A stretch of 64,000 bases of DNA, taken from assembly GCA_944391465.1 (NCBI GenBank), contig CALXTS010000005.1, forward strand, positions 2,942 to 66,941. Reading direction: 5' to 3'. The notes under the pieces are model-generated. The model made no database searches. It had not been told where the DNA came from and saw only the letters and a program-made list of their open reading frames with translations. This DNA is from an uncultured Alphaproteobacteria bacterium. Lineage in GTDB: Bacteria; Pseudomonadota; Alphaproteobacteria; RF32; CAG-239. A program made the translations under genes and the position numbers. Positions within the stretch are counted from its first letter, which is position 1. Each line of letters starts with the position of its first letter. Shown piece by piece: positions 5,128-59,390 of the stretch.

Positions 5128-5588
5128 AAAAACTACCTAAAAAAGAAACTACGAAAAAAAATCTGCGATTGAATCTTTTCCAAAAATTGATTCTTTTCAT
5201 AGGTCTATTTATCTTAATAATTTCGACACTCCCGATTTTAGTTGTAATTTTCGTCGGACTGCTCCCTACATTGACAATCATGCTCACAGACTCCAAAAAT
5301 GCATATAAAATTACAATAGTTGGCTGTTTTAACCTTGCCGGTGTTTTAATATGTTCAACAAGTTTGCTCAATCAATTTGACTTTAATGAAGCCTTTTCAA
5401 TTATCAGTAATATTTTCAATCTGATAATCATGCTAAGCTCGGCAGCCTTAGGTGTTATTTTATACTACGAAATGCCAAATCTTTTTGTTTTCATTTCTCG
5501 AATCACACACCAAAAACGCCTCAAATATATAGAATACAGACTTGAAAAACTTGCGGCCGAATGGGGAAACAGCATTAGAAACAACTAA
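5124..5588 (+). CDS. Hypothetical integral membrane protein coupled to the kinase-like gene
   Basis: ATGA overlap with upstream stop; 3-4 hydrophobic segments; C-terminal LAAEWG. Confidence 0.75.
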   Translation: MKKLPKKETTKKNLRLNLFQKLILFIGLFILIISTLPILVVIFVGLLPTLTIMLTDSKNAYKITIVGCFNLAGVLICSTSLLNQFDFNEAFSIISNIFNLIIMLSSAALGVILYYEMPNLFVFISRITHQKRLKYIEYRLEKLAAEWGNSIRNN

Positions 5589-5619
5589 AAAGGTCCCCGA
5601 AAAAAATTCGGGAACCTTT
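5589..5619. terminator. Bidirectional intrinsic terminator
   Basis: AAAGGTCCCCGAA-aaaaa-TTCGGGAACCTTT between convergent genes. Confidence 0.75.
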
Positions 5620-5623
5620 AACC

Positions 5624-6499
5624 TTAATTAGCAACACCAATAGCTTTTCTTAATTTTTTAATAGAATTAAGCTCAATTTGCCGAACTCTTTCTTTAGAAA
5701 TATGATAAACTTTACTCAAATCGTCTAAAGTTTGCGGTTTATCATATAAACGCCGTTTAAACAAAATATCTTTTTCTCTTTTATTAAGACAAACTAAGGC
5801 TTTATTAAAAAGATTACGACGATACTGCATTGTTTCCGAATAAGCTAAAACATCTTCCTGATTAGGCTTTGTATCGGCAATAAAATCCATCCATTCGGTT
5901 CCGCTGTCGGAAGAACTATCAATAATTGTATTCAAAGAACCATCATGAGATTTTAGACGCATATTCATATCAGTAACATCTTGTACAGTTACCTCCAAAG
6001 ATTTTGCAATACCATCTAAAACATTAGGAGATAATTCTCTGTCATCGGTTAAATTAAGCTGATTTTTAATTTTTCTTAAATTAAAAAACAATTTTTTCTG
6101 AGCAGCTGTTGTTCCGATTTTCACCAAAGACCAAGAATTAAGAATATATTTCTGAACAGAAGCCTTAATCCACCATAAAGCATAAGTTGAGAAACGAAAA
6201 CCTTTTTCCGGTTCAAATTTCTCAACGGCATATAAAAGCCCGATATTTCCCTCAGCAATTAACTCTGCTGTAGGCAATCCGTACCCTCGATATTTAGAAA
6301 CAACCTTCACAACCAAACGCAAATGAGAGGTTACAAGAACTTTTGCAATATTTTGATTTTTCGTTTTTTGGTATTCAACCGCCATTCTGTATTCTTCATC
6401 TTGAGAAAGAATGGGATATTGCCGGATTTTTTGTAAATAACGAACCATATTTATTTCCGGCGAAAAGTCTATACCGTTAAGACCGATGGGATTCTCCAT
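5624..6499 (-). CDS. rpoH: RNA polymerase sigma-32 factor
   Basis: LVTSHLRLVV, LIAEGNIGL, GFRFSTYALWWI, RpoH box WSLVKIGTTAAQKKLFFNLRK, SKERVRQIE. Confidence 0.95.
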   Translation of the reverse strand: MENPIGLNGIDFSPEINMVRYLQKIRQYPILSQDEEYRMAVEYQKTKNQNIAKVLVTSHLRLVVKVVSKYRGYGLPTAELIAEGNIGLLYAVEKFEPEKGFRFSTYALWWIKASVQKYILNSWSLVKIGTTAAQKKLFFNLRKIKNQLNLTDDRELSPNVLDGIAKSLEVTVQDVTDMNMRLKSHDGSLNTIIDSSSDSGTEWMDFIADTKPNQEDVLAYSETMQYRRNLFNKALVCLNKREKDILFKRRLYDKPQTLDDLSKVYHISKERVRQIELNSIKKLRKAIGVAN

Positions 6500-6653
6500 T
6501 TTGGCACTCCTTTAAAATGTTAAAGTAAGGAAGTCCAAGTCCTAGTCCACGTTAACGACTCATGAATCTGAAAATTCATGAGTCAGACTCTTACATTAAA
6601 AAAAGAAATCCACAACCTATACTTTAGTTCTATTTTTTCAAGGAAAAAAAGAC

Positions 6654-7628
6654 TTACAAAAGATCTGCTTTTTCAATCAACTCATTGAAATCCCTTGGCA
6701 AATCAGAATCGAACTGCAAAAATATTTTTTTTCTCGGATGTATAAAACCCAAAGATTTAGCATGTAACGCTTGCCTTGGAAAATGATTAATAAAATCTTT
6801 TAAATCACAATCAACAGAAGAAGAAACAATCTTTTTGCTCTTTTCGTATAACTGATCACCAACCAAATTACACCCCTGAGAACTCAGGTGAACTCTGATT
6901 TGATGCGTTCGTCCCGTCTCTAAATTACACTTTACCAAACTCAAAAAATTTTTAAAAACTTTAATCGTTTTGTAATTTGTTATGGCTTCCTTACCATTTT
7001 TACGAACAACAGCCATTTTCTTCCGATTATATGGACTTCTGCCGATAAGCGATTCTATTCGCCCTTCAAGAGGATTTAAAACCCCAAACACCATAGCCCA
7101 ATAAGTTCTTTCAATTGAATGTTCGGCAAACTGAGCGCATAAACTTTTATGTGTCATATCATTTTTGGCAACCACCAATAAGCCGGATGTATCTTTATCT
7201 ATTCGATGAACAATCCCCGGACGTTTTACACCTCCGATTCCCGACAAGTTTCCTCGACAATGAAACAACAATGCATTGACAAGTGTTCCATGATAAGCCC
7301 CCGGAGCCGGATGAACGGTCATTCCTGCAGGTTTGTTTACAACTAAAAGATCTTCATCCTCATAAACAATGTCTAAAGGAATATCTTCTGGTTCCGGATT
7401 TGCATCTTCCGGCTCTGGAATAAACAATTGGAACTCTTCATTTTCCTTAACTTTATAAGAAGAATCGTTAATAATTTCACCATCTTTAGTTATGCAATCA
7501 TCCTTAAGCAATCTTTGAATTTGCGAACGAGAAACCTCTGGAAAACTCACAGACAAAAACTTATCGATTCTCCAGCCGTTATAACTTTTATTAACTATTG
7601 CTATGTTATTATTCTCAGTATCAGCCAT
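6654..7628 (-). CDS. rluD: RluA/RluD family 23S rRNA pseudouridine synthase
   Basis: S4 domain, VVNKPAGMTVHP, RPGIVHRIDKDTSGLLV, LETGRTHQIRVH, RQALHA; conserved rluD-rpoH order. Confidence 0.92.
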   Translation of the reverse strand: MADTENNNIAIVNKSYNGWRIDKFLSVSFPEVSRSQIQRLLKDDCITKDGEIINDSSYKVKENEEFQLFIPEPEDANPEPEDIPLDIVYEDEDLLVVNKPAGMTVHPAPGAYHGTLVNALLFHCRGNLSGIGGVKRPGIVHRIDKDTSGLLVVAKNDMTHKSLCAQFAEHSIERTYWAMVFGVLNPLEGRIESLIGRSPYNRKKMAVVRKNGKEAITNYKTIKVFKNFLSLVKCNLETGRTHQIRVHLSSQGCNLVGDQLYEKSKKIVSSSVDCDLKDFINHFPRQALHAKSLGFIHPRKKIFLQFDSDLPRDFNELIEKADLL

Positions 7629-7694
7629 ATTATTCTTCAAAAGTTGATATAGGACATAATACGGTTAAAAAGATAACTTTCAAGAGAGATAAGC

Positions 7695-7979
7695 ATGGAA
7701 AAACTGAAAATCGTAAAAATCATTGTCTGTTTGCTCACCTTTTTATTGGTTTTAGGAACATTAGCATTACTGGGAACAATCTATAAAAAAACCAGAAAAA
7801 ATATACCGACACATGAAATTAACTATACATTATCTCAACCGAAAGGATCCGAAATATCACAATACAGCATCCACAACGGACAACTTTATATGCTGATAAA
7901 ACACGGAGGATTATCTGATAGAATTATTATCTATAATCCTGAACAAGCAACAGTAACCGGAACAATCCAATTAAACTAG
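7695..7979 (+). CDS. Small hypothetical protein, single N-terminal TM helix
   Basis: 94 aa, hydrophobic residues 6-30; divergent from rluD. Confidence 0.7.
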   Translation: MEKLKIVKIIVCLLTFLLVLGTLALLGTIYKKTRKNIPTHEINYTLSQPKGSEISQYSIHNGQLYMLIKHGGLSDRIIIYNPEQATVTGTIQLN

Positions 7980-7988
7980 GAAAACTTT

Positions 7989-8945
7989 ATGCTTGAAGAA
8001 GAATTTAACCTTGAAAATGAACTTTTGGAAACTGATTTTTCCAGCTTAATGTTAACAGATGATGTGGTAGAAACGGAAAAAGAAAGCTCTAAAACAGAAA
8101 ATGCGGATTCAGATGATGAATTTAACCGCATGCTTGATGATTTTATCAACGCACAAATAGAAAATGCTCAAGATAAGGCTAATGAAGAACTTGAATTAAT
8201 AAAAAACAATAAACCGTCACCTTCAGCATTAAAAAACAATAACGAAATAAGTGAAATTTTATTTGAAGAAGAACAGCGTCTCTATGATGCATATGTCAAC
8301 TTTACGAATGCCGTAAATGCTATGGTCGAACAACAAACAGAATTTGACGCGCCCTTTTTCAGTTTTGAGGCTAAACAATTATATCCGCGTTTTCGTCCAT
8401 CCAGAGGACGCCTTTTAAACTTGGATATCCTTGCAGGATGGGATTTTTTGCTCAAAGCACAACCCGTACGTCTCTCAAGCCTTCCGCCCAAAGCAAGCGA
8501 CGAACAACTTTTAAGTTTTGCCGAAAAATGTACGGATGAAAACTTACAATTGGCTATAATTTCCTATGTTGAGATTTTGATTGAGATGGAAGGATGCGAA
8601 ATCAGCTACAACCTAAGAAAAGCCAAGCACGACAAAAAGAAACTGGAAAAACAAATATATAAAGAACATCTGGAACGTAAAGAAAAAATCAAAAAATATA
8701 TTGAAGCCATTCAAGCAAAAAACTTTCCGGTAGATGCAGAACGTTTGGTAAACAATTATTTCAAGACCGCCAAAAAAGACCCTGAAGGAGCGCGTAAAAT
8801 TTTAGAAAACAACCCGGCGACATATGCTCCGATTCAAATAGAAAAGATACAGCCACGCTTTTTTGGAATGATAAAACCCAAACCCGAAGATGGTATCCGA
8901 GTCAATAAAGAACTGGGAGAATTTTTCAAAAAATTAAAAATCTGA
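7989..8945 (+). CDS. Hypothetical protein (acidic N-terminus, coiled coil, possible BID-like C-terminal domain)
   Basis: 318-aa ORF with AGGA RBS; domain resemblance judged by eye only. Confidence 0.7.
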   Translation: MLEEEFNLENELLETDFSSLMLTDDVVETEKESSKTENADSDDEFNRMLDDFINAQIENAQDKANEELELIKNNKPSPSALKNNNEISEILFEEEQRLYDAYVNFTNAVNAMVEQQTEFDAPFFSFEAKQLYPRFRPSRGRLLNLDILAGWDFLLKAQPVRLSSLPPKASDEQLLSFAEKCTDENLQLAIISYVEILIEMEGCEISYNLRKAKHDKKKLEKQIYKEHLERKEKIKKYIEAIQAKNFPVDAERLVNNYFKTAKKDPEGARKILENNPATYAPIQIEKIQPRFFGMIKPKPEDGIRVNKELGEFFKKLKI

Positions 8946-8961
8946 CACAAGTACAAAAATA

Positions 8962-8990
8962 TAGACAAAAACAAAAAACAATGCTAAAAT
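8962..8990 (+). promoter_or_regulatory. Putative sigma70 promoter for the 9031-15880 operon
   Basis: TAGACA-17 nt-TAAAAT with extended -10 TG. Confidence 0.55.
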
Positions 8991-9030
8991 ACAATTAATT
9001 ATCAAATAAACAAACAAAAAGGTAATCATC

Positions 9031-10809
9031 ATGAGTGTTGCAGAACGTTTAAGAAATGATGTTGATGAAAGAAGAATAATAAAACCGGAAAACCGAGACT
9101 CATCTCGTCATACATACGGTGCAAGCACTCCTCCGACACCGCCTCCCGCACCTGGTACTGTTGTTATAAATGCCGCAGGTAATGATGATGATGAAAAAAA
9201 CAAAGAAAAAGAAAAAATAAAAACCATCAGTGATAAAAACATCAGAAAACTTTTTGACCCAGACTATGATCCGACGGCTCCTGATGACGACGATGCCAAA
9301 GTCGGAGAAGTTGGCACGACTGATGATAAAGATCAAAAAACCGACGTTAACACAGATCCGATAAAGATTCAAAGCGGCGACTTCATAAAATTTTTAATGG
9401 AAGATGTCGTCTTAAATGGTTTTGCCGGATGGATAGGCGGAAAAGCAGCCGGTGCCGTAGGAGCCATCACTTACAATGTTGCTGAATGGACATATCACAA
9501 AACCATGAGAGACCCATATCGCTGGCTCGGTAAAAAATATCATGAGTATAAAGAAAAAAGAGAGAAAGAACGCGTTGAAGAACTAAAAAAAGCGGCCAAA
9601 ACTTGGACCGAAGAAAATGATTTAAAGCCTCATGAAAACGATAGCGAACGAGCAAAATTCGTAAAGAAAATGCTCCGTCGCCACAACGCCAATCTGGAAC
9701 AAATTGAAGGTTTATCATCGCAATACAGTATAGATTTTCTCATCAAAAACATTGAAGAGGGAAAACTTGAGCAAGTCAAATTTGAAAGACTTAGTCCGGA
9801 ATTAAATAAAGCACTCAAAGATCGTTTAAATATGTTAAAAGAAGCGGCTCCGGAAGAAAGAGAGGCTCAACTCAACTACTTAAGAGAAAACTTAAAAGAG
9901 GCTCTCCTGCAAGAACAGCAAATTGCTTGCTTAGCTTCAGCATACGCCGCTACAAGAATGATGCATGAAAAGAACAAAAATCCGGATTATAACGCTCATG
10001 CCTCAGACGGACAGTTGTCACAAGAATATGAACTTTATTACTTAAACGCGCGCGCTAAAATTCTGGAGCAAATGAGAAACCCTAATTTCAGCATGGATAA
10101 AACCATTGACAGCTTTAATTCAATGTTTGAAACGGAATTTAACAATCACAAGAAGTTAGATCAAATAGAAAAAAGCAACAGTAGTGAAGTTTTCGAAGTT
10201 AAAAACCCCAAGTTAACCGAAGCAATAAATAATCACACTTACGGTTCTGGAGGAGATATTGATGAAGAATTAAAATCTGCAAATGAAACTTGTGAAAGTC
10301 TGGCGCAAGAACTTGCAGAAATAAAAAGACAAAGGGATAATCTTGCAAAATTCAAAAAAAATCTCCAAAAAGGAATCCCTTTACATACGGCTATCAGAAT
10401 AAATGATAATGAAAGAAACACTGTTCAGTCAGATAAAGTTTCTCAAACCTCGTTCCAAAACGGGCAAGGAGAAAAAGTCTCTTTGAGCACAACAGATAAC
10501 AAATCCATAAACATAACCGCTAAAGATAAAGAGGGAAAACCTAAAATACCTTCAATAACAGATTTTGAAACGGTGTTTAATGGATTGAAAAACAAAAGAA
10601 GTGAGTTTGAAATCGGCAACATTGTCAATGATGAATTTAAGGCAAGAATGATAATTGCCGCAGCAAACACCGGCATAAAAATCACCAACCTTGAGACAAG
10701 AGGAGCCGTCAATCATGCTATGCTAAGTCAAGAAACCAAAAAAGCACTTCAACAAAAAAACATTGTTTTGCCACAAAAACAAACTCAAGAAAGGACGCAA
10801 GACCGCTAA
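9031..10809 (+). CDS. Large hypothetical protein (Pro/acidic N-terminus, glycine-rich hydrophobic segment, coiled coil, LPD7-like C-terminus)
   Basis: 592-aa ORF; NGFAGWIGGKAAGAVGAI segment; C-terminal EIGNIVNDEFKARMIIAAANTGIKITN; ends QERTQDR. Confidence 0.72.
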   Translation: MSVAERLRNDVDERRIIKPENRDSSRHTYGASTPPTPPPAPGTVVINAAGNDDDEKNKEKEKIKTISDKNIRKLFDPDYDPTAPDDDDAKVGEVGTTDDKDQKTDVNTDPIKIQSGDFIKFLMEDVVLNGFAGWIGGKAAGAVGAITYNVAEWTYHKTMRDPYRWLGKKYHEYKEKREKERVEELKKAAKTWTEENDLKPHENDSERAKFVKKMLRRHNANLEQIEGLSSQYSIDFLIKNIEEGKLEQVKFERLSPELNKALKDRLNMLKEAAPEEREAQLNYLRENLKEALLQEQQIACLASAYAATRMMHEKNKNPDYNAHASDGQLSQEYELYYLNARAKILEQMRNPNFSMDKTIDSFNSMFETEFNNHKKLDQIEKSNSSEVFEVKNPKLTEAINNHTYGSGGDIDEELKSANETCESLAQELAEIKRQRDNLAKFKKNLQKGIPLHTAIRINDNERNTVQSDKVSQTSFQNGQGEKVSLSTTDNKSINITAKDKEGKPKIPSITDFETVFNGLKNKRSEFEIGNIVNDEFKARMIIAAANTGIKITNLETRGAVNHAMLSQETKKALQQKNIVLPQKQTQERTQDR

Positions 10810-11298
10810 ATGTTAAAAAAATTTTTTCACCTGATTCGGTTTCTTTTAATCGGTACCATTTGGACTTTAGTCTTTTTGGTACTTTCTAGTCTTATAATGT
10901 ATCAAGCATGGAATTTTGATATTTTTAATTTTGACGACTGGCAAACCATAGAAAGATTTTGGAATTCCGGCGGAACAATAAAAATAGCAAGAGATTATGC
11001 TTTTATCGGAAGTATAATTTTAATACCGATTTTATGGATATGGATATTATACAAATTAAACAAAATAAACTGGCTTGATATTATTTTAGCTCCCGTTCAT
11101 TCATACAATGCATGGATAATCAGACGCTACGGCAGTGATTCAAAAAGGATTGTTTTAAAAAATATCAAATCGAGTCAAGATAATATTGAGTTTATAAAAC
11201 AACAGTTGGAATCCATTAAACCGGAAAAACCCAGAGAGGTCGTCAACATTCGCGAGGAGATTCAAAAAAAGATTGAATCAGAAACAACAAAGTACTAA
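10810..11298 (+). CDS. Hypothetical membrane protein, paralogous to the N-terminal domain of 11348-12604
   Basis: Starts directly after the upstream TAA; two TM segments around WNFDIF..W..FWNSG..AFI. Confidence 0.78.
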   Translation: MLKKFFHLIRFLLIGTIWTLVFLVLSSLIMYQAWNFDIFNFDDWQTIERFWNSGGTIKIARDYAFIGSIILIPILWIWILYKLNKINWLDIILAPVHSYNAWIIRRYGSDSKRIVLKNIKSSQDNIEFIKQQLESIKPEKPREVVNIREEIQKKIESETTKY

Positions 11299-11347
11299 TA
11301 AACACTTATTAACCAAATTTATGTTAGAATATGCATAAAAATAAGTC

Positions 11348-12604
11348 TTGGAGAGAATTTTGAAACCACTGTTAATATTGATACGCATAATATTCGTCGG
11401 TATCTTCTGGAGTATTTTCTTCTTTGAAGGTATTCGCGTTATTTTGCTTACTAACTGGCATTTTGACATTCTCCGTCAAGCGCACTGGTTATATGCCTGG
11501 AATTTATGGTTATCCGGTTGGGTAATTGATGATGCCAAAGAATGGGCGTTTATTTTAATTGTATTATCGTTTATTCCGCTGTGGCTGACAGGCTGGGCGG
11601 CTTTGAGCATGGTAAAATATGGAAAAATATTTGAATTTATTCTTTACCTACCGCTCAAAATCTTCAATAAGCTATTTGAAAAACAAGTTAAAAAAATTGC
11701 AGATACCGCAAGCGTAAAACTTGTAAAAAAGAAAAAATCTTATAAAGAGATACGTCCTAAGAGTATTCGCCCTCCGGTTGAAGAAAGCTCATACATGGGT
11801 GGAGCAACCTCCTCTCATAACAAATCCGGCTTATCTTCAGCCCCGACACACTCCATAACGCCATCTTCACCCAAACCGATAGCGCCAACCGAAAACAAGC
11901 CCAAAGAATTTGATCATTCTTTGTTTAATATTGATGACGGGACGGATTTTGACTTTGATTTGTTTGATGATAACATCATGGCCTCTCCGCCATCATCTCC
12001 CAAACCATCTAAAGAGCCGGCGCACACGCCTCCGGCTAAAGAAACAAACAACAAAAAAGAAAACAAACCCTCAGAAGCATCGTCAACCAACACCAAACGA
12101 CCTGTTTCTAATTCAACTCTTGAAGTTATTAAGCAAAAAGGTTATGAGGTTATCACAGCTGCAACTATCAAAAACACGCTTATTGACTTCATCGGTGTTT
12201 CTGATAAGCAAATCTGTCTATGTTTAACCGATAAAGAACCGGGAGATTGGCTTGCCGATGAAGAACGTTTTAACGATGAAGAGCCGCTTTGGTTTTCAGA
12301 AAGTTCTCACCGAATTTCGCCGGTCAGAAAAATTGATGTTGCCCGCAACTATCTTAAAGATAAATTAACCGAAAACGGACTAGACTATAAGATAGAAGCC
12401 TATGTAATCGAACAAATCGGAAACATTATAAATGCAGAAGATATGTTTGAAATCTGGAATGAAATGAACATCAAAGTAACCAGAATCGACAGGGGAACCC
12501 CTAAAGAGATAAACCTTTTTGCCAAAACCCTTGAAGAAGCATCTGGAAAAGCCACTAAAGAAGATTTTGAAAAATTAAAAAAACTAATCCGCAACTTAGC
12601 ATAA
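11348..12604 (+). CDS. Membrane protein with Pro/Ser-rich linker and degenerate NERD/PD-(D/E)xK-like C-terminal domain
   Basis: N-terminal TMs with WHFDIL..W..LWLSG..AFI; low-complexity linker; C-terminal LIDFIGVSDKQICLCLTDKEPGDW...LW...ISPVRKI. Confidence 0.7.
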   Translation: MERILKPLLILIRIIFVGIFWSIFFFEGIRVILLTNWHFDILRQAHWLYAWNLWLSGWVIDDAKEWAFILIVLSFIPLWLTGWAALSMVKYGKIFEFILYLPLKIFNKLFEKQVKKIADTASVKLVKKKKSYKEIRPKSIRPPVEESSYMGGATSSHNKSGLSSAPTHSITPSSPKPIAPTENKPKEFDHSLFNIDDGTDFDFDLFDDNIMASPPSSPKPSKEPAHTPPAKETNNKKENKPSEASSTNTKRPVSNSTLEVIKQKGYEVITAATIKNTLIDFIGVSDKQICLCLTDKEPGDWLADEERFNDEEPLWFSESSHRISPVRKIDVARNYLKDKLTENGLDYKIEAYVIEQIGNIINAEDMFEIWNEMNIKVTRIDRGTPKEINLFAKTLEEASGKATKEDFEKLKKLIRNLA

Positions 12605-12622
12605 TTTAACAGGATAAAGAAA

Positions 12623-14845
12623 TTGAGTAAACGTGGAGAAGAATGGGAAGAATATGATAATGCCGTCAAATGGATGGTTATAACCTTTCTTATCGCTATC
12701 AGCGTCACAATTATACTTGCGTTAATCTCAATGCCGTTGGGATATTTATTGGGAACCGGAATCTCCAAAGATTCTCTTTCCGATGTTGGAAAATACTTTT
12801 CGCTTGTCTTTAATAAAAGCGGATATCTTTTCTCCAGATACTGGAGATGGATGCGTCAACTTTCAACTTATCAGGGAGAGTTTTCGTTTAGTTTATGGAT
12901 ACCGATACTTCCTTTTTTAAGTTTTCCGATAATTCTTATTACTGGCATTATCAGCAATCCTTATCACTTTCAGTCTAACATCCACGGTTCAGCACGAATT
13001 GCCGAATTAGGTGATATAAAAAAGATGGAACTTTTAGGGTTCGATGGCTTTTGCCAAGTTGTAGGAAAATTTAACGGAAAATTGCTTTTATTAAAAGAAA
13101 CGCTTTCAACCTTATGTTGCGCACCTCCGGGAACCGGTAAAACGGCAGGCGTTGTTGTTCCTACTATATTTAACTCTCCCGGATTAAGTATCATCGTAAA
13201 CGACCCCAAACCGGAGTTGTGTTATCAAACATCCGGTGCGCGAGCAAAAGTCGGCCCCGTATTTATCATCAACTGGGGTATGGAAGATAACCCGGAAGAA
13301 GGAATTTATTATCCAAGTTGGAATCCACTGTCTCCGGGAGCTGTTCCTGCCCCCGGACCGGCTCGCGATATGTACATAGATTCCATGTGTAACGTTTTGG
13401 TAGAAGATCCAAAAGGTGGAGCAGATCCGCACTGGTCACAAACCGGACGAGCAGCATTAACGGGCTTTATACATTTCATCGTTTCAAAATGCGAAAAAGC
13501 CAGAGCCAATGACTATTTCATCGGCCGCATTTATGAAGGAAAATTAGATGAAGAAGATAAAAAAGTCCTTGAAGGCTATTACCTCGAAATGCATGACCCG
13601 ATGTCCTCTCGAGCGGTTCAAAATCTGCGAACAAACAACTTAAATATAGATAACTATCTTCCTATCGGAACATGGGCGCTTCTACCGGAAAAATGGATTG
13701 GAAGAGAGTCTTGTATTGCCATGATTTTGGAATGGATTACAGAAGCTCAAATCAAACAATCACAAGAAATTAAACGACGCCTAGAAGAAGGTGACCAAAT
13801 GGCTGCTATGGCAGACCCCATGCGAGACTTGTTGGAAGCAGCCATTGAAGAAGCTCGAAAATTTGGCTATTCAGCCCGATGCATCGTAGAATTAAGCCAA
13901 TTAAGCTCCATGCCGGATAAAGAAAGAGGTTCCGTACTCTCCACCGCTTTTTCTGGTATTGGTATCTTTAAAAACTCTGCCGTTGTTGCGCGTACCAGTT
14001 TCAGCGATATCAGCTTTAAAGATTTAAGAGGATTAAAAGACCCGATTACCGGAGAATTCAAACCTATTTCGGTTTATCTCTCGGTAAACCAAGTTGATGC
14101 CAGAGCGTTAAGCGTTATTTCAGGAACCTTCATTGACTTAATGTCATCTTACCTGATTGCCAACCCGCCTAAATTTAAAAATCCGACAGACGGACAAATG
14201 GGTCCCTTCCCTTGCCTGTTTGTTATGGACGAGTTTCCGACCATGCCTAAATTAAAAGCCGTTATTGACGGTCCGGCGGTTGGACGCGGACAAAAAGTTT
14301 CATACCTTCTGATTGGACAAGATTTAGGACAAATCTCCGGTAAATACGGAAAAGATGACCTTGAAACCGTAATTTCAACCACGGCATGCAAAATCATCTT
14401 ATCACAAAACAACGAACAAACAGCTCAGCGTTTTTCAAAGATGATTGGAAACAAAACCGTACAAACCACCTCATTTTCAAAAAATGAAGGTATCAGCTTG
14501 AGCAAAGGAGCTAATCCTTTCGCTAAAAATGTTAGCTACCAACTTCAAGGTGTTTCGGCAATCTCGGCAACCCAATTGCTCAGCCTTCCGATGCTCAAAC
14601 AAGTTGTCTTAATGCAAGGATATATCGACCGCCCGATTATGGCGGATTCGCCTCGTTGGTATCTTGATAACAAAATGAAAGCCTTACGCAACCTGCCTCC
14701 GGCACCAAATGTTCCTGATTGGATTGTCGCACAAAGAGAAGACATTAACGACGATATGTTAGCAAAACTCGGCATAGACTATGATCCAAATGAAGATGAT
14801 AGCACCGAAGATGGTGAATTTGACGAAGAAAACGCAACCAACTAA
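12623..14845 (+). CDS. virD4: VirD4/TraG-family type IV secretion coupling protein
   Basis: Two N-terminal TMs, HGSARIA, Walker A APPGTGKTAGVVVPT, IVNDPKPEL, WNPL, DPHW, Walker B FVMDEFPTMPKL, GRGQKV..IGQDLGQI..YG; acidic C-terminal tail. Confidence 0.9.
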   Translation: MSKRGEEWEEYDNAVKWMVITFLIAISVTIILALISMPLGYLLGTGISKDSLSDVGKYFSLVFNKSGYLFSRYWRWMRQLSTYQGEFSFSLWIPILPFLSFPIILITGIISNPYHFQSNIHGSARIAELGDIKKMELLGFDGFCQVVGKFNGKLLLLKETLSTLCCAPPGTGKTAGVVVPTIFNSPGLSIIVNDPKPELCYQTSGARAKVGPVFIINWGMEDNPEEGIYYPSWNPLSPGAVPAPGPARDMYIDSMCNVLVEDPKGGADPHWSQTGRAALTGFIHFIVSKCEKARANDYFIGRIYEGKLDEEDKKVLEGYYLEMHDPMSSRAVQNLRTNNLNIDNYLPIGTWALLPEKWIGRESCIAMILEWITEAQIKQSQEIKRRLEEGDQMAAMADPMRDLLEAAIEEARKFGYSARCIVELSQLSSMPDKERGSVLSTAFSGIGIFKNSAVVARTSFSDISFKDLRGLKDPITGEFKPISVYLSVNQVDARALSVISGTFIDLMSSYLIANPPKFKNPTDGQMGPFPCLFVMDEFPTMPKLKAVIDGPAVGRGQKVSYLLIGQDLGQISGKYGKDDLETVISTTACKIILSQNNEQTAQRFSKMIGNKTVQTTSFSKNEGISLSKGANPFAKNVSYQLQGVSAISATQLLSLPMLKQVVLMQGYIDRPIMADSPRWYLDNKMKALRNLPPAPNVPDWIVAQREDINDDMLAKLGIDYDPNEDDSTEDGEFDEENATN

Positions 14846-14856
14846 AGAGATAAGTA

Positions 14857-15462
14857 ATGTGGGAATGGTCTAACAAAAAAAATATAACCGAACAAGAAAC
14901 CAGCTCCCTTGCCGATGCCTATAATGATTTGCTAAAAAAAGACGGATATAAAACAACATCTCCCAATCGACAATTATCAGAAAATAAAAAATTTATCTTA
15001 GAAAATGAGGCATCATTACTTAAAGCTGAAAACATGCAGCATTTTCTTGAACAAAAAATAGAAAAATATGGTCTACGCGGAATTACCTTACAAGAGCATT
15101 CATATAAACCTCAAACTTGGGATGAAATGGATAAATCTTTTATAGAATACAGAAAACTCCGCAAAATTTTTTTGAAGATGCTTGGATATTCACATGAAGA
15201 AGAATGTCGCCGGCTCGGATTAAACGATAAAGATATTTCTTTGCTTAAACAAAGCATATCTCCGGAAAATTATAATACACACATTAAATTTCCGCTTGAT
15301 TTCGGAGGAGTTCTCGACCTTAACAACTTAGCACTAATGAAAACCAATCCGCATCATGAACTGTTTCACAGGCTTATTGATATCCAAATTGAAAAGAACT
15401 ATCTAAAAACCAATAAAAAAATATTTATCCCCCATTTTGAAGGGAAAATTTACTATGATTAA
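14857..15462 (+). CDS. HNH-like nuclease domain protein of polymorphic-toxin type (possibly degenerate)
   Basis: RKIFLKML..LGLNDKDISLLKQSISPENYNTHIKFPLDFGGVLDLNNLALMKTNPHHELFH resembles the toxin HNH pattern YxVHHKxPLDxGGxNDxxNLxLIKxxPxH. Confidence 0.65.
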   Translation: MWEWSNKKNITEQETSSLADAYNDLLKKDGYKTTSPNRQLSENKKFILENEASLLKAENMQHFLEQKIEKYGLRGITLQEHSYKPQTWDEMDKSFIEYRKLRKIFLKMLGYSHEEECRRLGLNDKDISLLKQSISPENYNTHIKFPLDFGGVLDLNNLALMKTNPHHELFHRLIDIQIEKNYLKTNKKIFIPHFEGKIYYD

Positions 15463-15880
15463 AGAATATGTAGAACAAATAAAAAACAAAGACGGATGTG
15501 TCTATTTTGCTCCGGCAAAAGCCGAAGATATAGAAGCAATCAATAACAAAATGAAAGAGTTTCTTTTTGCCGAAATACCCGCAGAATACAAAGAATTTTT
15601 GAGTCTTACAAACGGAATCATCTATGACGGTATAGAGTTTTTCGGATGCCGCCCTCAAATAAGAAATAATTACACTTTCCCAGACTTAATAAAAATAAAT
15701 CAACCCTATTCAGAATACGCTTATTTTAGCGATAAAATCATCATTGGGAGGATTTCAGAAAGTTTTATCGTCTATAACAGCCCATCAAATGATTACGCTA
15801 TGATAGACCGCCTAAACCTGCTTACCAGATCAGAAGAAGATAGTTTTACAGAACTTTTTAAAAATTTATGCGAAATCTAA
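15455..15880 (+). CDS. SMI1/KNR4 (SUKH, YrhA-like) immunity protein
   Basis: PAKAEDIEAI..IPAEYKEFLSLTNGIIYDGIEFFG..IIIG..Y..ID..SFTELF; overlaps the end of the HNH-like gene. Confidence 0.8.
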   Translation: MIKEYVEQIKNKDGCVYFAPAKAEDIEAINNKMKEFLFAEIPAEYKEFLSLTNGIIYDGIEFFGCRPQIRNNYTFPDLIKINQPYSEYAYFSDKIIIGRISESFIVYNSPSNDYAMIDRLNLLTRSEEDSFTELFKNLCEI

Positions 15881-16065
15881 TCTTCTTCACCTGAATTAAA
15901 TGAAGTTTCAGCAAGTTGCTCCAAATCTTTTTCATCAATTTCAACAGCTTCGACGGTATATTTCTCACAAAACCAATTACCCAAATCAATATCGGCACAA
16001 CGTTTAGAACAAAAAGGACGATATTTTTTATCGGTAAACTCTTTTTTACAAATCGGACAAATCAT
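15877..16065 (-). CDS. yacG: DNA gyrase inhibitor YacG
   Basis: CPICKK..YRPFCSKRCADIDLGNW zinc finger. Confidence 0.93.
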   Translation of the reverse strand: MICPICKKEFTDKKYRPFCSKRCADIDLGNWFCEKYTVEAVEIDEKDLEQLAETSFNSGEED

Positions 16066-17231
16066 TTTTCAACTCTTCCCTGCCCGCAACAGCTCGGACA
16101 TTCTACCGTTAAAACATCTCTCAAACTCGGACGCCGCCGCATACGAATAATTTCAACATTTCCGCCTCGACTTAAGCCATAACATGTTGACTTTACATAA
16201 TCTTTTTTCAAACCTTGATTTAATATTTCAATAGGGCTTTTCAAAAACTTATATTCAGATAACCCTGCAAAATCAATAACAATCTTTCCGGATAAATTTC
16301 TTAGCTTAATTTGTCGTAAAATTTCTTCAGCAGCTTCCGCATTAAGACGATTAAGATTTCCGTTATTTTTATCATCTCCGCTGTCAACATCAATCGCTGT
16401 ACAAGCCCTCGTTTCTTCAATAATGATTCGTCCACCGCCCGGAAGCTGAACAATTGGAGATAAAGCCTCTCCTATAGATTCATCTAACCCATAATCCTTA
16501 AAAGCATCCGAAACTAATTCAACCTCAAAATCCTTATCAGATAAAGATTGCAGTTCTTCATACAAATTCCGAGCATTAACGACAATTTTTTTAAGAGTTG
16601 ATTTATTTCTGAAAATATACTCATAAATCGGATTTTTTTTACCGAGAAGAAGAACGGGAGCATTAACTTTTCTAGCCAAAACTCTTACCTCATCATACTT
16701 TGCTCTTAATTGTTCCATTTCTTTAACAATATCTGTATTTTTAGCAGATTCGGCAGATGTTCTGACAATCCATCCTTCTTGACCTGTCGTATTATCCAAA
16801 AACAAATCTTTTAATTCTTGAGCTCTACTTTTGTCCTCAATTTTATTTGAAACTTCTACAGACATTTTATATGGACAATAAACCGAGTATTCTCCGACAA
16901 ATTGTAATGAGCGACAAAGTTTAGCACCTTTTTCTGCTCTTTGCTCTTGGGCAACCTGTACAATCAAACTTTGACCTTCGGTTGCGTTCAAATCATCTAA
17001 ACCATACTCTCTGGCATTTATAAAAGCCTCTTTACCGTCATTAATATCAACAAAATATCCTAAACTTCCGTTTGCCAAATCAATTTTATGTAAAATTTTT
17101 CCCAAATATATACTACCTTCAGCGGCAGATTTAATATCATCTATTTCTAACTCGGTAAGTTTTCCGGCCTCTAAACCGGCAATTTTAATTTTACCTTCTG
17201 TTTTTTCATAAACAATCGTATCTAAATCCAT
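16062..17231 (-). CDS. Ribonuclease E/G family protein
   Basis: S1-like GSIYLGKI..FVDI, LIVQV..KGA, IVRTSA, TAIDVDSG, RQIKLRNLSGKIVIDF, CPSCCGQG; in the maf-rng-yacG order. Confidence 0.88.
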   Translation of the reverse strand: MDLDTIVYEKTEGKIKIAGLEAGKLTELEIDDIKSAAEGSIYLGKILHKIDLANGSLGYFVDINDGKEAFINAREYGLDDLNATEGQSLIVQVAQEQRAEKGAKLCRSLQFVGEYSVYCPYKMSVEVSNKIEDKSRAQELKDLFLDNTTGQEGWIVRTSAESAKNTDIVKEMEQLRAKYDEVRVLARKVNAPVLLLGKKNPIYEYIFRNKSTLKKIVVNARNLYEELQSLSDKDFEVELVSDAFKDYGLDESIGEALSPIVQLPGGGRIIIEETRACTAIDVDSGDDKNNGNLNRLNAEAAEEILRQIKLRNLSGKIVIDFAGLSEYKFLKSPIEILNQGLKKDYVKSTCYGLSRGGNVEIIRMRRRPSLRDVLTVECPSCCGQGRVEK

Positions 17232-17233
17232 CG

Positions 17234-17815
17234 CTAAATCTCCTCTTTAATTCCGGCTGAAATCAACATATTTCTTGTTTCATACAAAGGTAATCCGACA
17301 ACCCCTGAATAAGAACCGATTATTTTGCGCACAAAAGCGGCCAAACATCCTTCGATCTTATATCCTGAACAACCAATCCATTCGTGCGTTTTTATATAAT
17401 CACTAATCTCTTTTTCCGTAAGACTCTTCATCAAAATTTTCGTAGTGTTAAGTTTAAGAGAAAGCCTTCCTTTAGCATCAATAACACTTACAGCACTTAA
17501 AACCCGATGAGTTTTTCCGGATAACATTTTCATAATACATTCTTGTTCTGCATCATTTTTAGCTTTTTGAATAATTTTTTGCCCGCAAACAACAACCGTA
17601 TCACAAGCCAAAACAATTTCTCCGGGATATTTCTGCGCTACATGCAAACATTTTTCCTTCGCCATTCTTTTAACATAGGCAGAAGGTTTCTCAAACTTAA
17701 GAGGTGTTTCATCAATATCAGCAGGCTCAATTTTTTTAGGAGAAAGAGAAACCTGCTCAAGAAGTTGTTTTCTTTGAGGAGAACCCGACGCCAAAATAAA
17801 ATTGTAACAAACCAT
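17234..17815 (-). CDS. maf: Maf family nucleoside triphosphate pyrophosphatase
   Basis: ILASGSPQRKQLL, IDET, ACDTVV, LSGKTHRV, GSYSGVVGLP. Confidence 0.92.
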   Translation of the reverse strand: MVCYNFILASGSPQRKQLLEQVSLSPKKIEPADIDETPLKFEKPSAYVKRMAKEKCLHVAQKYPGEIVLACDTVVVCGQKIIQKAKNDAEQECIMKMLSGKTHRVLSAVSVIDAKGRLSLKLNTTKILMKSLTEKEISDYIKTHEWIGCSGYKIEGCLAAFVRKIIGSYSGVVGLPLYETRNMLISAGIKEEI

Positions 17816-17921
17816 CAAAACAACCCAAAAAATAGATTACCATACAAAAAAGAGCTTTAACGAAAACGGTTCAACAAGATTTGTTTTCGAAAAAAGCTCT
17901 AAAAAAAATTAATAAAAAAGA

Positions 17922-18347
17922 TTAGGCTTCATCATCATAAGTCTTTTCCATCCGCTCATGACGCTCCTGAGCTTCAAGAGAAAGAGTTGCGACCGGACGA
18001 ACCTCTAATCTGTCAATACCGATAGGATCTCCTGTCTCTTCACAATAACCATAAACCCCATCTTCAATTCTTTTAAGGGCATCATCAATTTTAGAAATCA
18101 GTTTACGTGCACGATCCCGAGTTCTTAATTCTAAAGCCTTATCAGACTCCAAAGATGCACGATCAATCTGATCAGGCTGATTAAGTCCGCCTTGGCGTAA
18201 ATCTTCAAGAGTATCTTTAGATTGTCCGATTAAAGATTTCTTCCAGTTAAGAAGTTTCTGGCGAAAATACTCCAACTGCATTTCGTTCATATATTCTTCA
18301 TCTTTAGAAGGTTTATAATCAGGCGGAAGAATAACAACATTATCCAT
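17922..18347 (-). CDS. dksA: RNA polymerase-binding protein DksA
   Basis: EEYMNEMQLEYFR, PDQIDRAS, LRTRDRARKLISKI, YGYCEETGDPIG..RLEVRP; alphaproteobacterial one-Cys type. Confidence 0.96.
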   Translation of the reverse strand: MDNVVILPPDYKPSKDEEYMNEMQLEYFRQKLLNWKKSLIGQSKDTLEDLRQGGLNQPDQIDRASLESDKALELRTRDRARKLISKIDDALKRIEDGVYGYCEETGDPIGIDRLEVRPVATLSLEAQERHERMEKTYDDEA

Positions 18348-18457
18348 AACACGGCTCCTTAACTAACATAAAATAAATATTATCTGGTAACATACCTAAT
18401 CATATTAAAAATTCAAGAGAAAAAATAGAATTATCAGCCCATAATCAATTGAAAAGT

Positions 18458-18880
18458 CTATTTTGTCAGCTTAGCCAGCTCAACCTCGACTCTCAATTCA
18501 ATTTCTGCAATAATTTCTTTTAATTTTTCATCTTGAGTTTCAAATTGTTTTTCTTTAATCATTCTGGACAACTCTATAAGCTCGTCTTTAGATATATAAC
18601 CGGCTAACAAACCATCTCTGATAACCTCAAGTTTATCTAAAAGAGCATTACCTCTTTTAATAAGTTTTTTGCGAATTTGCTTTTCTTCCTCATCTGTTGC
18701 GGTCTGAGCAGCAAAAATAGCATCAGTTATAGAAATTGCGGATGAAGGATTTACCGGAGCACTATCTGTTTTCATCATTTCATTCAAGTAAGAAGAGAAA
18801 CTAGCACCCGTTCCAGTTTTAACACTTTTTCCTGTTTTAGAGGTTGTTCTACTAGCGGAAACATCATTAACTTTAATCAC
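18458..18880 (-). CDS. fliX: FliX-family flagellar assembly regulator
   Basis: RG..LLDKLEVIRDGLLAG and IIAEIELRVEVELAKL C-terminal motif; upstream of dksA as in other alphaproteobacteria. Confidence 0.8.
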   Translation of the reverse strand: MIKVNDVSASRTTSKTGKSVKTGTGASFSSYLNEMMKTDSAPVNPSSAISITDAIFAAQTATDEEEKQIRKKLIKRGNALLDKLEVIRDGLLAGYISKDELIELSRMIKEKQFETQDEKLKEIIAEIELRVEVELAKLTK

Positions 18881-18895
18881 AAAACATCTCCTTAT

Positions 18896-19492
18896 TTATT
18901 GGAACACCCAAGTAATATCATTGGTTGTATCACTCGTACAAGCTGCAGAAGCCTTATCAAAAGTAACCGGAAGCCTAACAACGTTACCATCAATAGTTTT
19001 CATTTCATCATAATTTCCGTAAGGCAATAAGAATAGAGTTTCTGCATTAACACTAATCGCAACCATATCAGAATTTTGGCGTTTAACCCAATTAATCTGC
19101 AAAATATCAATGCAAGCTCTTTTATTAAGACCAAAGAAAGTAACATTATAATAATCATCACTTTGAAAAACTTCATCTTTGCTGATAATTACCTTACCTC
19201 CTAACCTGTGGCGAAGCTCTTCACCCGAAATTAAAGAAGTTGGAATAACTTTTTCTTCAATAAGCGTTGCATTATCTCCTAAAGTATCATATTTACCTTC
19301 AACAGCATATCTTTCGGTAATATTTTTTTGTAAATCTTGAATCTGGCTAACCGTAACACTTTGTTTAAATTTCGACATTACATTGCTTATAATTCCCAGA
19401 ACACCAATTCCAAGAATAGATATTATAGAAATAACGGCCAAAGTTTCCATCATGGTGGCGCCGCTCTGATTACTTGTTTTACCCAAAAGCAT
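18896..19492 (-). CDS. Type IV pilin/pseudopilin (PilS-like)
   Basis: Class III signal peptide NQSG|ATMMETLAVISII with E5; YDTL, GGKVII, GLNKRACI, C-terminal Cys; AGGAG RBS before ATG 19492. Confidence 0.8.
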   Translation of the reverse strand: MLLGKTSNQSGATMMETLAVISIISILGIGVLGIISNVMSKFKQSVTVSQIQDLQKNITERYAVEGKYDTLGDNATLIEEKVIPTSLISGEELRHRLGGKVIISKDEVFQSDDYYNVTFFGLNKRACIDILQINWVKRQNSDMVAISVNAETLFLLPYGNYDEMKTIDGNVVRLPVTFDKASAACTSDTTNDITWVFQ

Positions 19493-59194: not shown

Positions 59195-59270
59195 TGGTGG
59201 AGCCAGGGAGGATCGAACTCCCGACCTGTTGATTGCGAACCAACCGCTCTCCCAACTGAGCTATGACCCC
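59195..59270 (-). tRNA. tRNA-Ala(CGC)
   Basis: GGGGTCATAGCTCAGTTGGGAGAGCGGTTGGTT-CGC-AATCAACAGGTCGGGAGTTCGATCCTCCCTGGCTCCACCA; G3:U70, encoded CCA. Confidence 0.95.
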
Positions 59271-59314
59271 ATTTTAATCAAAAAACCGCTAGCAATCGCA
59301 GCGGTTCAAAAAAA

Positions 59315-59390
<76 letters not shown>

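Follow-up and report, generated by a model that had tools for sequence, protein, structure and literature searches.

What does a gene for a VirD4-type coupling protein serve when it stands between housekeeping genes and apart from the virB operon? The question is raised by a block of seven genes (positions 7989-15880) in the 64,000-nucleotide stretch of DNA analyzed here, which is called the window below (contig C5, positions 2942-66941) and belongs to the genome of an uncultured alphaproteobacterium (1.58 Mb in 43 contigs, rated 100% complete and 0.6% contaminated, with a guanine-plus-cytosine (GC) content of about 37%). To our knowledge, the way in which a type IV coupling protein (T4CP) chooses its substrates is known for few type IV secretion systems (T4SSs), namely the relaxosome systems and those that use XVIPCD in the Xanthomonadales, BID domains or the DotL adaptors. 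A first-pass annotation of the window had described the block as an orphan VirD4 operon with novel partners and a nuclease/immunity pair, working with virB genes located elsewhere in the genome.

The block is chromosomal and occurs in a clade of small-genome, gut-associated Alphaproteobacteria, in which a divergent VirD4 is uncoupled from a virB operon that lies on another contig. This VirD4 is fixed beside one or two copies of a new inner-membrane protein family (OrfC/OrfD) and also beside a protein with an HNH DNase-type toxin domain, OrfE, that is accompanied by a SUKH immunity-type partner. We consider it fairly probable that the vertically inherited VirD4 module loads OrfE, as a DNase toxin neutralized by the SUKH protein, onto the T4SS for contact-dependent attack, with OrfC and OrfD acting as membrane adaptors.

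Results

A divergent VirD4 is encoded apart from the virB operon

The virD4 gene of the block (12623-14845, plus strand; 740 aa) matches PF02534 (E value 2.5e-56, 191.9 bits versus a cut-off of 20.1) as well as PF12696 and PF10412, with an E value of 9.8e-22 for the TraG-D_C match. The intact Walker motifs and the acidic tail reported by the first-pass annotation were both found: the Walker A residues G170, G172, K173 and T174 and the Walker B residue D536 are invariant across 31 VirD4 sequences, and the protein has two N-terminal hydrophobic segments and an acidic C-terminal tail. The best NCBIfam scores (132.9, 120.3 and 105.4 bits) are below the respective cut-offs (250, 728 and 674 bits) of equivalogs that include the Rickettsia-type VirD4, IncP TraG and Ti VirD4; the protein is therefore a T4CP outside all curated subfamilies. 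A phmmer search against the PDB sequences gave no match at E ≤ 0.01. Judged from these profiles, VirD4 is a divergent T4CP.

As had been anticipated, the VirB machine is encoded elsewhere in the genome, on contig C4 (1855-50398), which carries virB2, virB4, four virB6-like genes, two virB8 genes, virB9, virB10 and virB11. The minus strand of this region holds virB2-like genes, a gene for a 1877-aa protein, virB4, six open reading frames (ORFs) without assignment (164-1323 aa), two virB8 genes and virB9, followed by genes for a protein of 1113 aa that has beta-flower and RHS repeats and for a 1515-aa VirB10 with beta-flower repeats, and then by virB11. The four virB6-like genes (458-1129 aa) lie upstream on the plus strand and show TrbL/VirB6 matches, three of them over the cut-off. 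The gene after virB11 is on the opposite strand and is not virD4. One VirB4 match and one VirB9 match were found in the genome.

In a sample of 31 genomes from 23 genera of the family, a VirB4 orthologue was present in 29, and the two genomes that lack it are 59% and 72% complete. A VirD4 orthologue (at least 73% identity) was likewise present in 29 genomes; a thirtieth genome matches at 29%, which is the level of a paralogue, and one genome rated 100% complete (G406) has no VirD4 match. No gene for TssC, the type VI sheath protein, was detected in any of the 31 genomes, with a search that worked on the positive control in Escherichia coli, so that the T4SS is the sole contact-dependent route found. 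The TPS domain PF05860 also gave no match in these genomes, in a search run without a positive control.

The VirD4 of the block is not an orphan in the sense of being the only one, and this part of the initial description had to be given up. A paralogue encoded on contig C2 (54647-58188; 790 aa) is 29% identical over 685 aa (E value 6e-95) and sits directly behind a pentapeptide-repeat protein of 385 aa. The same pairing was found in both distant genomes bearing the module that were examined for it (L136 and L137), and a second, weaker VirD4 match is present in about half of the 31 family genomes. No PADLOC defense-system model matched the two neighbors scanned on C2. The genome thus encodes two coupling proteins, each with a conserved neighbor of its own.

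The block is conserved in place in close relatives

When one genome per species was scanned, 265 loci were found to encode a VirD4 relative, and the best 80 of them (77-90% identity) were analyzed. All 80 are gut or fecal metagenome-assembled genomes with titles such as "uncultured Alphaproteobacteria bacterium", "Proteobacteria bacterium CAG:495" and "Candidatus Scatocola faecigallinarum"; names such as CAG:495 and Candidatus Scatocola faecigallinarum are, we take it, placed by GTDB in the order RF32. Upstream genes were counted in the 74 loci whose sequence reaches 6.5 kb or more upstream of virD4, and downstream genes in the 71 that reach 1.3 kb or more downstream of it. By BLASTP, rluD, the DUF6476 gene, orfA, orfC and orfD lie upstream of virD4 in 74/74 loci. 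The slot of orfB is occupied in all 74 by an ORF of 437-755 aa, and OrfB itself was recognized by BLASTP in 28 of the 80 loci (23-46% identity). Among the 80, orfC is present in 79 and orfD in every one. Downstream, orfE and the SUKH gene are both present in 29/71 loci, neither of them ever alone, and they stand directly behind virD4 in 26 of these 29; the right flank of the block is variable among relatives.

The proteins of the block differ in how much they have changed. The median identity to the window copy is 82.5% for VirD4, 57% for OrfD, 50.5% for OrfA, 43% for OrfE, 41% for the SUKH protein, 38% for OrfC and 32% for OrfB. The products of the flanking genes rluD and rng range from 57 to 77% and from 48 to 64% identity, respectively; VirD4 is thus better conserved than the housekeeping genes that flank the block.

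This conservation bears on the origin of the block as a remnant of an integrated conjugative element or a plasmid, an explanation suggested by the fact that T4CPs are mostly plasmid or conjugative-element genes and by the 4757 plasmid records that match VirD4. All of these plasmid proteins are less than 60% identical to it, and the closest ones reach 33.7-35.6%. Three plasmid loci were examined (on megaplasmids of Erythrobacter, Microvirga and Sphingosinicella), and in all three virD4 closes a canonical virB8-virB9-virB10-virB11-virD4 row. The next-closest chromosomal VirD4s, with 39-47% identity in full-length tblastn alignments and up to 54% in partial ones, come from other small alphaproteobacterial genomes with the order virB11-virD4. 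In a quick maximum-likelihood tree of 43 T4CPs, which was midpoint-rooted with the careful search unfinished and has five plasmid proteins in a thin sampling of named references, 29 of the 30 module VirD4s form one clade (support of 98 in the Shimodaira-Hasegawa-like approximate likelihood ratio test, SH-aLRT) apart from the five plasmid proteins. Its sister group (83) consists of the second paralogues, which form a clade of their own (96); the plasmid trio clusters with the virB11-linked chromosomal proteins (86), and IncP TraG and a Nitrosospira plasmid protein are far outside the module clade. The thirtieth module VirD4 (from locus L115) is on a long, unresolved branch. Accordingly, VirD4 is not nested among the plasmid TraG proteins.

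The genome gave no match to the relaxase families PF03432, PF08751 and PF03389, a search for direct and inverted repeats over positions 5000-19000 returned short AT-rich imperfect matches, none of them bracketing the block, and no tRNA gene lies within 43 kb of it. The absence of a relaxase and of att repeats, which had been noted from the window, was therefore seen in these searches as well. With position and order fixed in 74/74 loci and in at least 23 genera, with a best plasmid identity of 34-36% and with a separate clade in the tree, the conjugative-element explanation is already contradicted, and we give it next to no credence. With 74/74 loci conserved, 0 relaxase matches and no patchy distribution among the relatives, the block is not a decayed mobile element.

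VirD4, OrfD, OrfE and the SUKH protein are linked across distant families

An OrfD profile was run on 401 genomes drawn across the class, and the OrfD family was found in 25 of them (0.9-2.5 Mb), several of which have tandem copies. A VirD4 match (E ≤ 1e-40) was present in all 25 genomes with orfD versus 12 of the 376 without it. Five of these 12 were examined: virD4 is located behind virB11 in four of them, with virB10 also there in three, and no orfD, orfE or SUKH gene was found near virD4 in any of the five.

Twelve orfD loci were fetched from families other than that of the window. In 11 of them one or two copies of orfD are followed, in this order, by virD4, orfE and SUKH, with VirD4 proteins 50-66% identical to that of the window and a locus GC content of 33-60%; the twelfth holds orfD alone on a contig that ends 2.6 kb further on. 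The SUKH gene accompanies orfE in 11/11 loci, and in four of the loci a full-length orfD paralogue occupies the orfC slot. On the other hand, orfA, orfB and the position next to rluD recur in just one further family (L113). A VirB4 orthologue (55-65% identity) was found in 5/5 of the distant genomes with the module that were examined. Such a strict and deep linkage between OrfD, VirD4, OrfE and its SUKH partner argues that the four work together. In one of these loci (L112), a 321-aa ORF (8836-9801) that is weakly similar to two parts of VirD4 lies between orfD and the full virD4, and it may be the remnant of a partial virD4 duplication.

The block is thus conserved rather than shuffled, its left part being kept in 74/74 close loci and its core order in distant families. 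The genomic findings agree with the inference of the first-pass annotation, and none of the outcomes that it had named as refuting was seen. It had further treated the seven genes as one unit, which held in part: the partnership of the HNH/SUKH pair with VirD4 is ancient, but the pair is missing from 42 of the 71 close relatives. One idea about the distant loci, that the GC-rich families bearing the module are Micavibrio-like predators, was dropped; the accessible part of the Micavibrio genome paper mentions no VirB or VirD4.

OrfE has a toxin-type HNH domain and a SUKH partner

The orfE gene (14857-15462, plus strand; 201 aa) starts 11 nt behind virD4 and encodes a protein resembling the HNH (beta-beta-alpha-metal) nucleases of colicins and pyocins. 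No Pfam family matched it at E ≤ 0.01, no HNH or toxin family of Pfam reached its threshold, and there was no NCBIfam match. A profile built from 31 relatives gave a single match in the PDB, the pyocin AP41 DNase (E value 0.16), and this match falls on the H..N..H..H motif, in which, across the 31 sequences, H142 never varies and N157, H167 and H171 each show a conservation of 90% or more. In the OrfE of the window, the colicin-type HH pair has a threonine at its first position. An AlphaFold2 model of OrfE (predicted local distance difference test, pLDDT, 84; predicted template modeling score 0.70) had as its best Foldseek matches the DNases of colicins E9 and E7 and of pyocins AP41 and S2 (probability 0.93-0.95 and E values of 0.07-0.3, over about 87 columns with a root-mean-square deviation, rmsd, of about 3 Å). 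With VIA just 41 chains were matched at Z ≥ 2, and almost all were HNH nucleases (Cas8-HNH, Z 5.9; Gme HNH and colicins E9 and E7, Z 4.0). Profile and model fold hence agree with the HNH-like assignment that had been made at first.

The kinship of the domain points to toxins. A profile of it recovered 686 relatives at E ≤ 0.001 among 1.84 billion cluster representatives. Ten long relatives were scanned with Pfam, and in seven of them the domain is preceded by modules of the types PT-HINT, PT-TG (two proteins), Tox-PAAR-like, RHS, MuF_C or Mu-portal; three of the ten have a marginal Pfam HNH match on the domain itself, and two have no match at all. Because most of the long relatives scanned carry such modules before the domain, OrfE is taken to have a polymorphic-toxin-type HNH domain and is a predicted nuclease. 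The gene behind it (15455-15880, plus strand; 141 aa from its ATG, which overlaps the orfE stop by 8 nt, so that the two genes are translationally coupled) had been called a SUKH gene, and this call stands: its product, a SUKH (SMI1/KNR4, YrhA-like) immunity-type protein, matches SUKH_5 of Pfam (E value 2.3e-7, 31.1 bits versus a cut-off of 27) and the YrhA family of NCBIfam (E value 2.7e-19, 69.5 bits versus a cut-off of 55). The longest ORF for it starts at a TTG at 15437 and encodes 147 aa.

OrfE also has a helical N-terminal extension, with a conserved N-terminal MWEWS motif. The distant OrfE orthologues (L105-L113, L115 and L116) are longer than those of the family of the window (211-433 aa); they keep the MWDWS/MWEWS start, have a long proline- and glutamine-rich linker inserted and end in a conserved tail of about 40 residues with a basic end that the family of the window has lost.

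Elsewhere in the genome, contig C8 (57940-59440) holds a diverged second pair. The first protein (364 aa) aligns through its C-terminal part with the HNH motif of OrfE (BLASTP E value 7e-5), and the protein encoded behind it (140 aa) was matched by our own SUKH profile (E value 7.9e-11). Neither of the two has a Pfam match.

The HNH/SUKH pair could be a self-standing toxin-immunity or addiction cassette that uses a permissive site after virD4, with VirD4 and OrfA to OrfD serving unlinked substrates. The loss of the pair from 42/71 close relatives, with clean junctions to yacG, fits such a cassette, as do its faster evolution (median identity of 41-43% versus 82.5% for VirD4) and the existence of the pair on C8, away from any vir gene. 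What speaks for a tie to VirD4 is that the MWDWS/MWEWS start is conserved across distant families and that the position directly behind virD4 is kept in 11/11 distant loci containing virD4, over a GC range of 33-60%, which would be difficult to account for if the pair and VirD4 were not functionally tied. A cassette with no such tie is accordingly a rather improbable explanation.

OrfC and OrfD form a family of membrane proteins with a nuclease-type fold in OrfD

Between orfB and virD4 lie orfC (10810-11298, plus strand; 162 aa) and orfD (11348-12604, plus strand; 418 aa, with a database copy that begins 4 codons downstream). OrfC is a short membrane protein and, as had been proposed, a paralogue of OrfD, with 30% identity to its N-terminal membrane domain over 79 aa (E value 1e-8). 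In OrfD, this membrane domain is followed by a basic stretch and by a disordered linker that carries an acidic motif, and the C-terminal domain (residues about 254-400) has a PD-(D/E)xK fold. In an AlphaFold2 model from a 28-sequence alignment (mean pLDDT 66.5; 64-91 in blocks of the C-terminal domain), helices at the N-terminus are connected through the disordered linker to an alpha/beta domain at the C-terminus. The closest structures to the latter were Upx (Z 8.5, 119 residues aligned, rmsd 3.7), Can2 (8.2), AF1548 (7.7) and NucS (7.4) with VIA-align, and N.BspD6I and NucS (probability 0.99, E values of 7e-3 to 1e-2) with Foldseek. A PD-(D/E)xK nuclease fold is thus assigned to the domain with moderate strength, because Z values of 6-8.5 count as common for VIA. 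The NERD-like domain that the first-pass annotation had seen in OrfD is therefore retained as a model that matches PD-(D/E)xK nucleases; the NERD label is not, as OrfD has no match to NERD or any other family of Pfam and its would-be catalytic residues vary.

Indeed, D280, D295 and K296 are invariant within the family and variable across families, and on this pattern the domain has probably lost catalysis. Residues 295-328 form an acidic, aromatic-rich loop that is invariant within the family and at least 90% conserved at most positions across distant families. Since this loop is conserved across families while the would-be catalytic residues vary, we infer that the C-terminal domain may be a non-catalytic scaffold with the loop as a putative binding surface. 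A complex of VirD4 (1-740) and the C-terminal domain of OrfD (250-418), predicted with alignment inputs, scored 0.00 in two runs made without controls, which counts neither for nor against binding of the two.

A different use of these proteins would be a relaxase-independent unit for DNA handling, in which the SUKH-controlled HNH protein and OrfD process DNA and the VirD4 motor exports or imports it through the T4SS. Two nuclease-type folds do flank a DNA-translocase-type ATPase, the genome, rated 100% complete, gave no match to the three relaxase families of Pfam, and other bacteria are known to have T4SSs for the release or uptake of DNA. The variation of the candidate catalytic residues of OrfD across families, the membership of the OrfE domain in a toxin family of colicin/pyocin DNase type and an immunity-type partner that suits a toxin better than a processing enzyme all count against it, and we regard such a unit as quite improbable.

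Layout of the block and its remaining genes

Between rluD (6654-7640, minus strand), the housekeeping gene of the left flank, and yacG-rng-maf (15877-17818, minus strand) on the right there are eight plus-strand ORFs. The first is a DUF6476 gene by Pfam (7695-7979, plus strand) immediately left of the block, and the remaining seven are the block; the ORF list agrees with the seven co-directional, close-packed genes first described, the intergenic gaps being 0-85 nt. The backbone-like composition ascribed to the block also held (GC 0.33-0.44 versus about 0.37 for the genome). The DUF6476 family adjoins rluD in 10/10 loci from other alphaproteobacterial families, including large genomes without the rest of the block; the DUF6476 gene is therefore backbone and outside the block, and the left border at 7989 is right. 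With rluD it forms a divergent pair, a widespread neighborhood of a small membrane protein and a pseudouridine synthase. The DUF6476 protein also gave the sole PADLOC match, a weak one to ThsA (E value 0.0016), with no defense-system model matching any protein from OrfA to SUKH.

The first gene of the block, orfA (7989-8945, plus strand; 318 aa), encodes a protein of a family without a name, with an acidic N-terminus that carries a conserved short acidic-hydrophobic motif and with a conserved C-terminal domain of about 230 aa. It has 535 database relatives, and among the 120 listed none has a Pfam domain or any name besides "hypothetical". The product of orfB (9031-10809, plus strand; 592 aa) is fast-evolving and mostly low-complexity or coiled. 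Neither OrfA nor OrfB has a match in Pfam, NCBIfam or PADLOC, and a look-up of each in the ESM Atlas gave no usable match.

A promoter and terminator scan of positions 7400-16300 gave counts no higher than those of shuffled sequences. Two neighboring tRNA-Ala genes (anticodons CGC and GGC) lie on the minus strand at 59195-59390 of the window, distant from the block.

Nine studies have animal-gut metagenomes that contain near-identical DNA, and those that hold it best are labeled chicken gut. Each of the 30 bins of the block is covered in two independent DNA runs. One metatranscriptome library contains six short contigs, which fall in orfA, orfB, orfD, virD4 (two) and the yacG flank (one). These contigs give at most a weak hint that the block is expressed, because they are contigs only, could stem from carried-over DNA and leave most bins empty.

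Discussion

Taken together, the gene order, the fold of OrfE and the presence of a VirB machine would be accounted for by a module in which OrfE is a cargo that VirD4 passes to the VirB channel for contact-dependent delivery into neighboring cells, most likely other bacteria, while the SUKH protein would silence the OrfE DNase in the producer. That OrfE belongs to a toxin family and has an immunity-type partner favors the view of a cargo toxin encoded next to its antidote. OrfC and OrfD would sit beside VirD4 in the inner membrane, and by analogy with the accessory subunits of other coupling complexes the acidic-aromatic loop of OrfD, on a cytoplasmic and probably non-catalytic domain, might be a docking surface for VirD4 or its substrates. 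OrfA and OrfB, which are additions of the family of the window and of one further family, could be further adaptors or cargo.

Several observations weigh against this toxin-delivery model. The 42 close relatives without orfE and SUKH keep orfA to virD4, and the pair is therefore dispensable and cannot be the sole reason for the module. No second protein of the genome has the MWEWS motif, so that no shared signal marks a set of cargo proteins, and OrfE is without a known T4SS recognition domain among the Pfam families; the XVIPCD model PF20410 found nothing in the genome and nothing in the controls either. In locus L115 the HNH histidines of OrfE are replaced although the SUKH gene is kept. The fold matches of OrfE are moderate (Foldseek E values of 0.07-0.3), as are those of OrfD, whose Z values of up to 8.5 are in a range termed common by the tool.

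The target could also be eukaryotic, in which case effectors would be translocated into host epithelium or gut protists, as in the Rickettsiales and Bartonella, the HNH protein would be a genotoxin or repurposed, and the SUKH protein would merely protect the producer. The module is found in small genomes (0.9-2.5 Mb), the next-closest VirD4s come from other small alphaproteobacterial genomes with the order virB11-virD4, and the giant VirB10 and its neighbor carry beta-flower/RHS repeats, so that they are possible adhesins. Arguing for bacterial targets instead, the OrfE domain is joined to bacterial polymorphic-toxin modules in 7/10 long relatives, no eukaryote-like domains were found with Pfam in the seven block proteins, and SUKH partners are reportedly typical of interbacterial toxin systems, as Zhang, Iyer and Aravind are said to have described in 2011. 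A further feature on the eukaryotic side is that the VirB machine, with several VirB6 and two VirB8 proteins, has hallmarks of the rvh system as set out in the part of its description available to us (PMC2653234). On balance, we hold delivery into eukaryotic cells to be unlikely.

The comparison with the rvh system of the Rickettsiales extends beyond these hallmarks. In the sections of that account at hand (PMC2653234), rvh shares with the system described here vertical inheritance, scattered vir genes, several VirB6 proteins, a duplicated VirB8 and small alphaproteobacterial genomes; it differs in its duplicated VirB4 and VirB9, of which one each was found here. Compared by description, the present system also differs in that virD4 is not behind virB11 and in having two VirD4 paralogues, each with a conserved neighbor.

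A cargo toxin with its antidote would follow the logic of the bacteria-killing T4SS of the Xanthomonadales (X-T4SS), in which, according to the accessible sections of a review (PMC6536674), a chromosomal VirB/VirD4 system has a toxin gene and an adjoining immunity gene (X-Tfe/X-Tfi) beside vir genes, with VirD4 as the presumed receptor; one X. citri X-Tfe gene sits in the vir locus, as those sections state (PMC6536674). The present block is likewise chromosomal, with housekeeping flanks, a conserved position and no relaxase found. The review also describes X-T4SSs with all twelve class A subunits and a VirB7 with an N0 domain (PMC6536674); the subunits searched for and found here are VirB2, VirB4, VirB6, VirB8, VirB9, VirB10 and VirB11. 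The differences are that OrfE has no XVIPCD by Pfam, the domain that X-T4SS effectors carry at the C-terminus (PF20410 found nothing in the genome, with no positive control), that virD4 is apart from the virB operon, that there are extra membrane partners, OrfC and OrfD, and that the lineage is alphaproteobacterial.

In the Dot/Icm system of Legionella, the T4CP DotL works with the inner-membrane protein DotM, whose cytoplasmic domain is thought to dock substrates, and with adaptors. The likeness to DotL-DotM is an analogy in gene order and logic, in that a T4CP gene adjoins an inner-membrane accessory gene with a cytoplasmic domain. Unlike DotL-DotM, the block belongs with a type IVA-like VirB system, and the cytoplasmic domain of OrfD combines a nuclease fold with an acidic loop. 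No DotM sequence or fold was matched among the Pfam, Foldseek and VIA results, which shows little because the match lists are dominated by nuclease folds.

OrfE itself is like the colicin E9/E7 and pyocin AP41/S2 DNases in the fold of its HNH core, in its aligned H-N-H-H residues and in the immunity-type gene directly downstream, and it is like the polymorphic HNH toxins with SUKH immunity in that its relatives form the C-termini of RHS, PAAR-like and pre-toxin proteins. Unlike these toxins, it has a threonine for the first histidine of the HH pair, a helical N-terminal extension and an MWEWS start, and, unlike the polymorphic toxins, it is linked to a T4CP and not to trafficking domains of type V, VI or VII secretion.

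The general kind of system, in which a T4SS comes with its coupling protein and a pair of toxin and immunity genes, is known. What is new is an uncoupled VirD4 more conserved than its housekeeping neighbors, a family of membrane partners with a nuclease fold, an HNH/SUKH pair fixed to a T4CP across many families, and a second T4CP with its own partner. No description of the module was found by searching the literature on the lineage and T4SSs, on VirD4 and SUKH or on bacteria-killing T4SSs.

A bolder and, in our estimate, improbable reading is that OrfD, VirD4, the HNH protein and the SUKH protein are one machine, with the nuclease-fold OrfD and the regulated HNH protein as built-in subunits of a relaxase-free, DNA-cutting and DNA-pumping front end of the T4SS. 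If it were true, the clade could attack and possibly feed on neighboring cells, which would suggest an epibiotic or predatory lifestyle in the gut, and substrates of a different class would be loaded in parallel by the second VirD4 and its pentapeptide-repeat neighbor.

The locus is a compact and conserved natural module that brings together a T4CP, new membrane partners with an invariant 34-residue loop, and a candidate cargo with its antidote. The accessible sections of the X-T4SS review place toxin-delivering T4SSs in the Gamma- and Betaproteobacteria and expect further bactericidal T4SSs with other recognition signals (PMC6536674). If toxin delivery by the module is true, it would extend such systems beyond these two classes as given there (PMC6536674), and it would provide the first functional handle on a widespread, uncultured lineage of gut Alphaproteobacteria, in which the T4SS is a core trait of the genomes searched.

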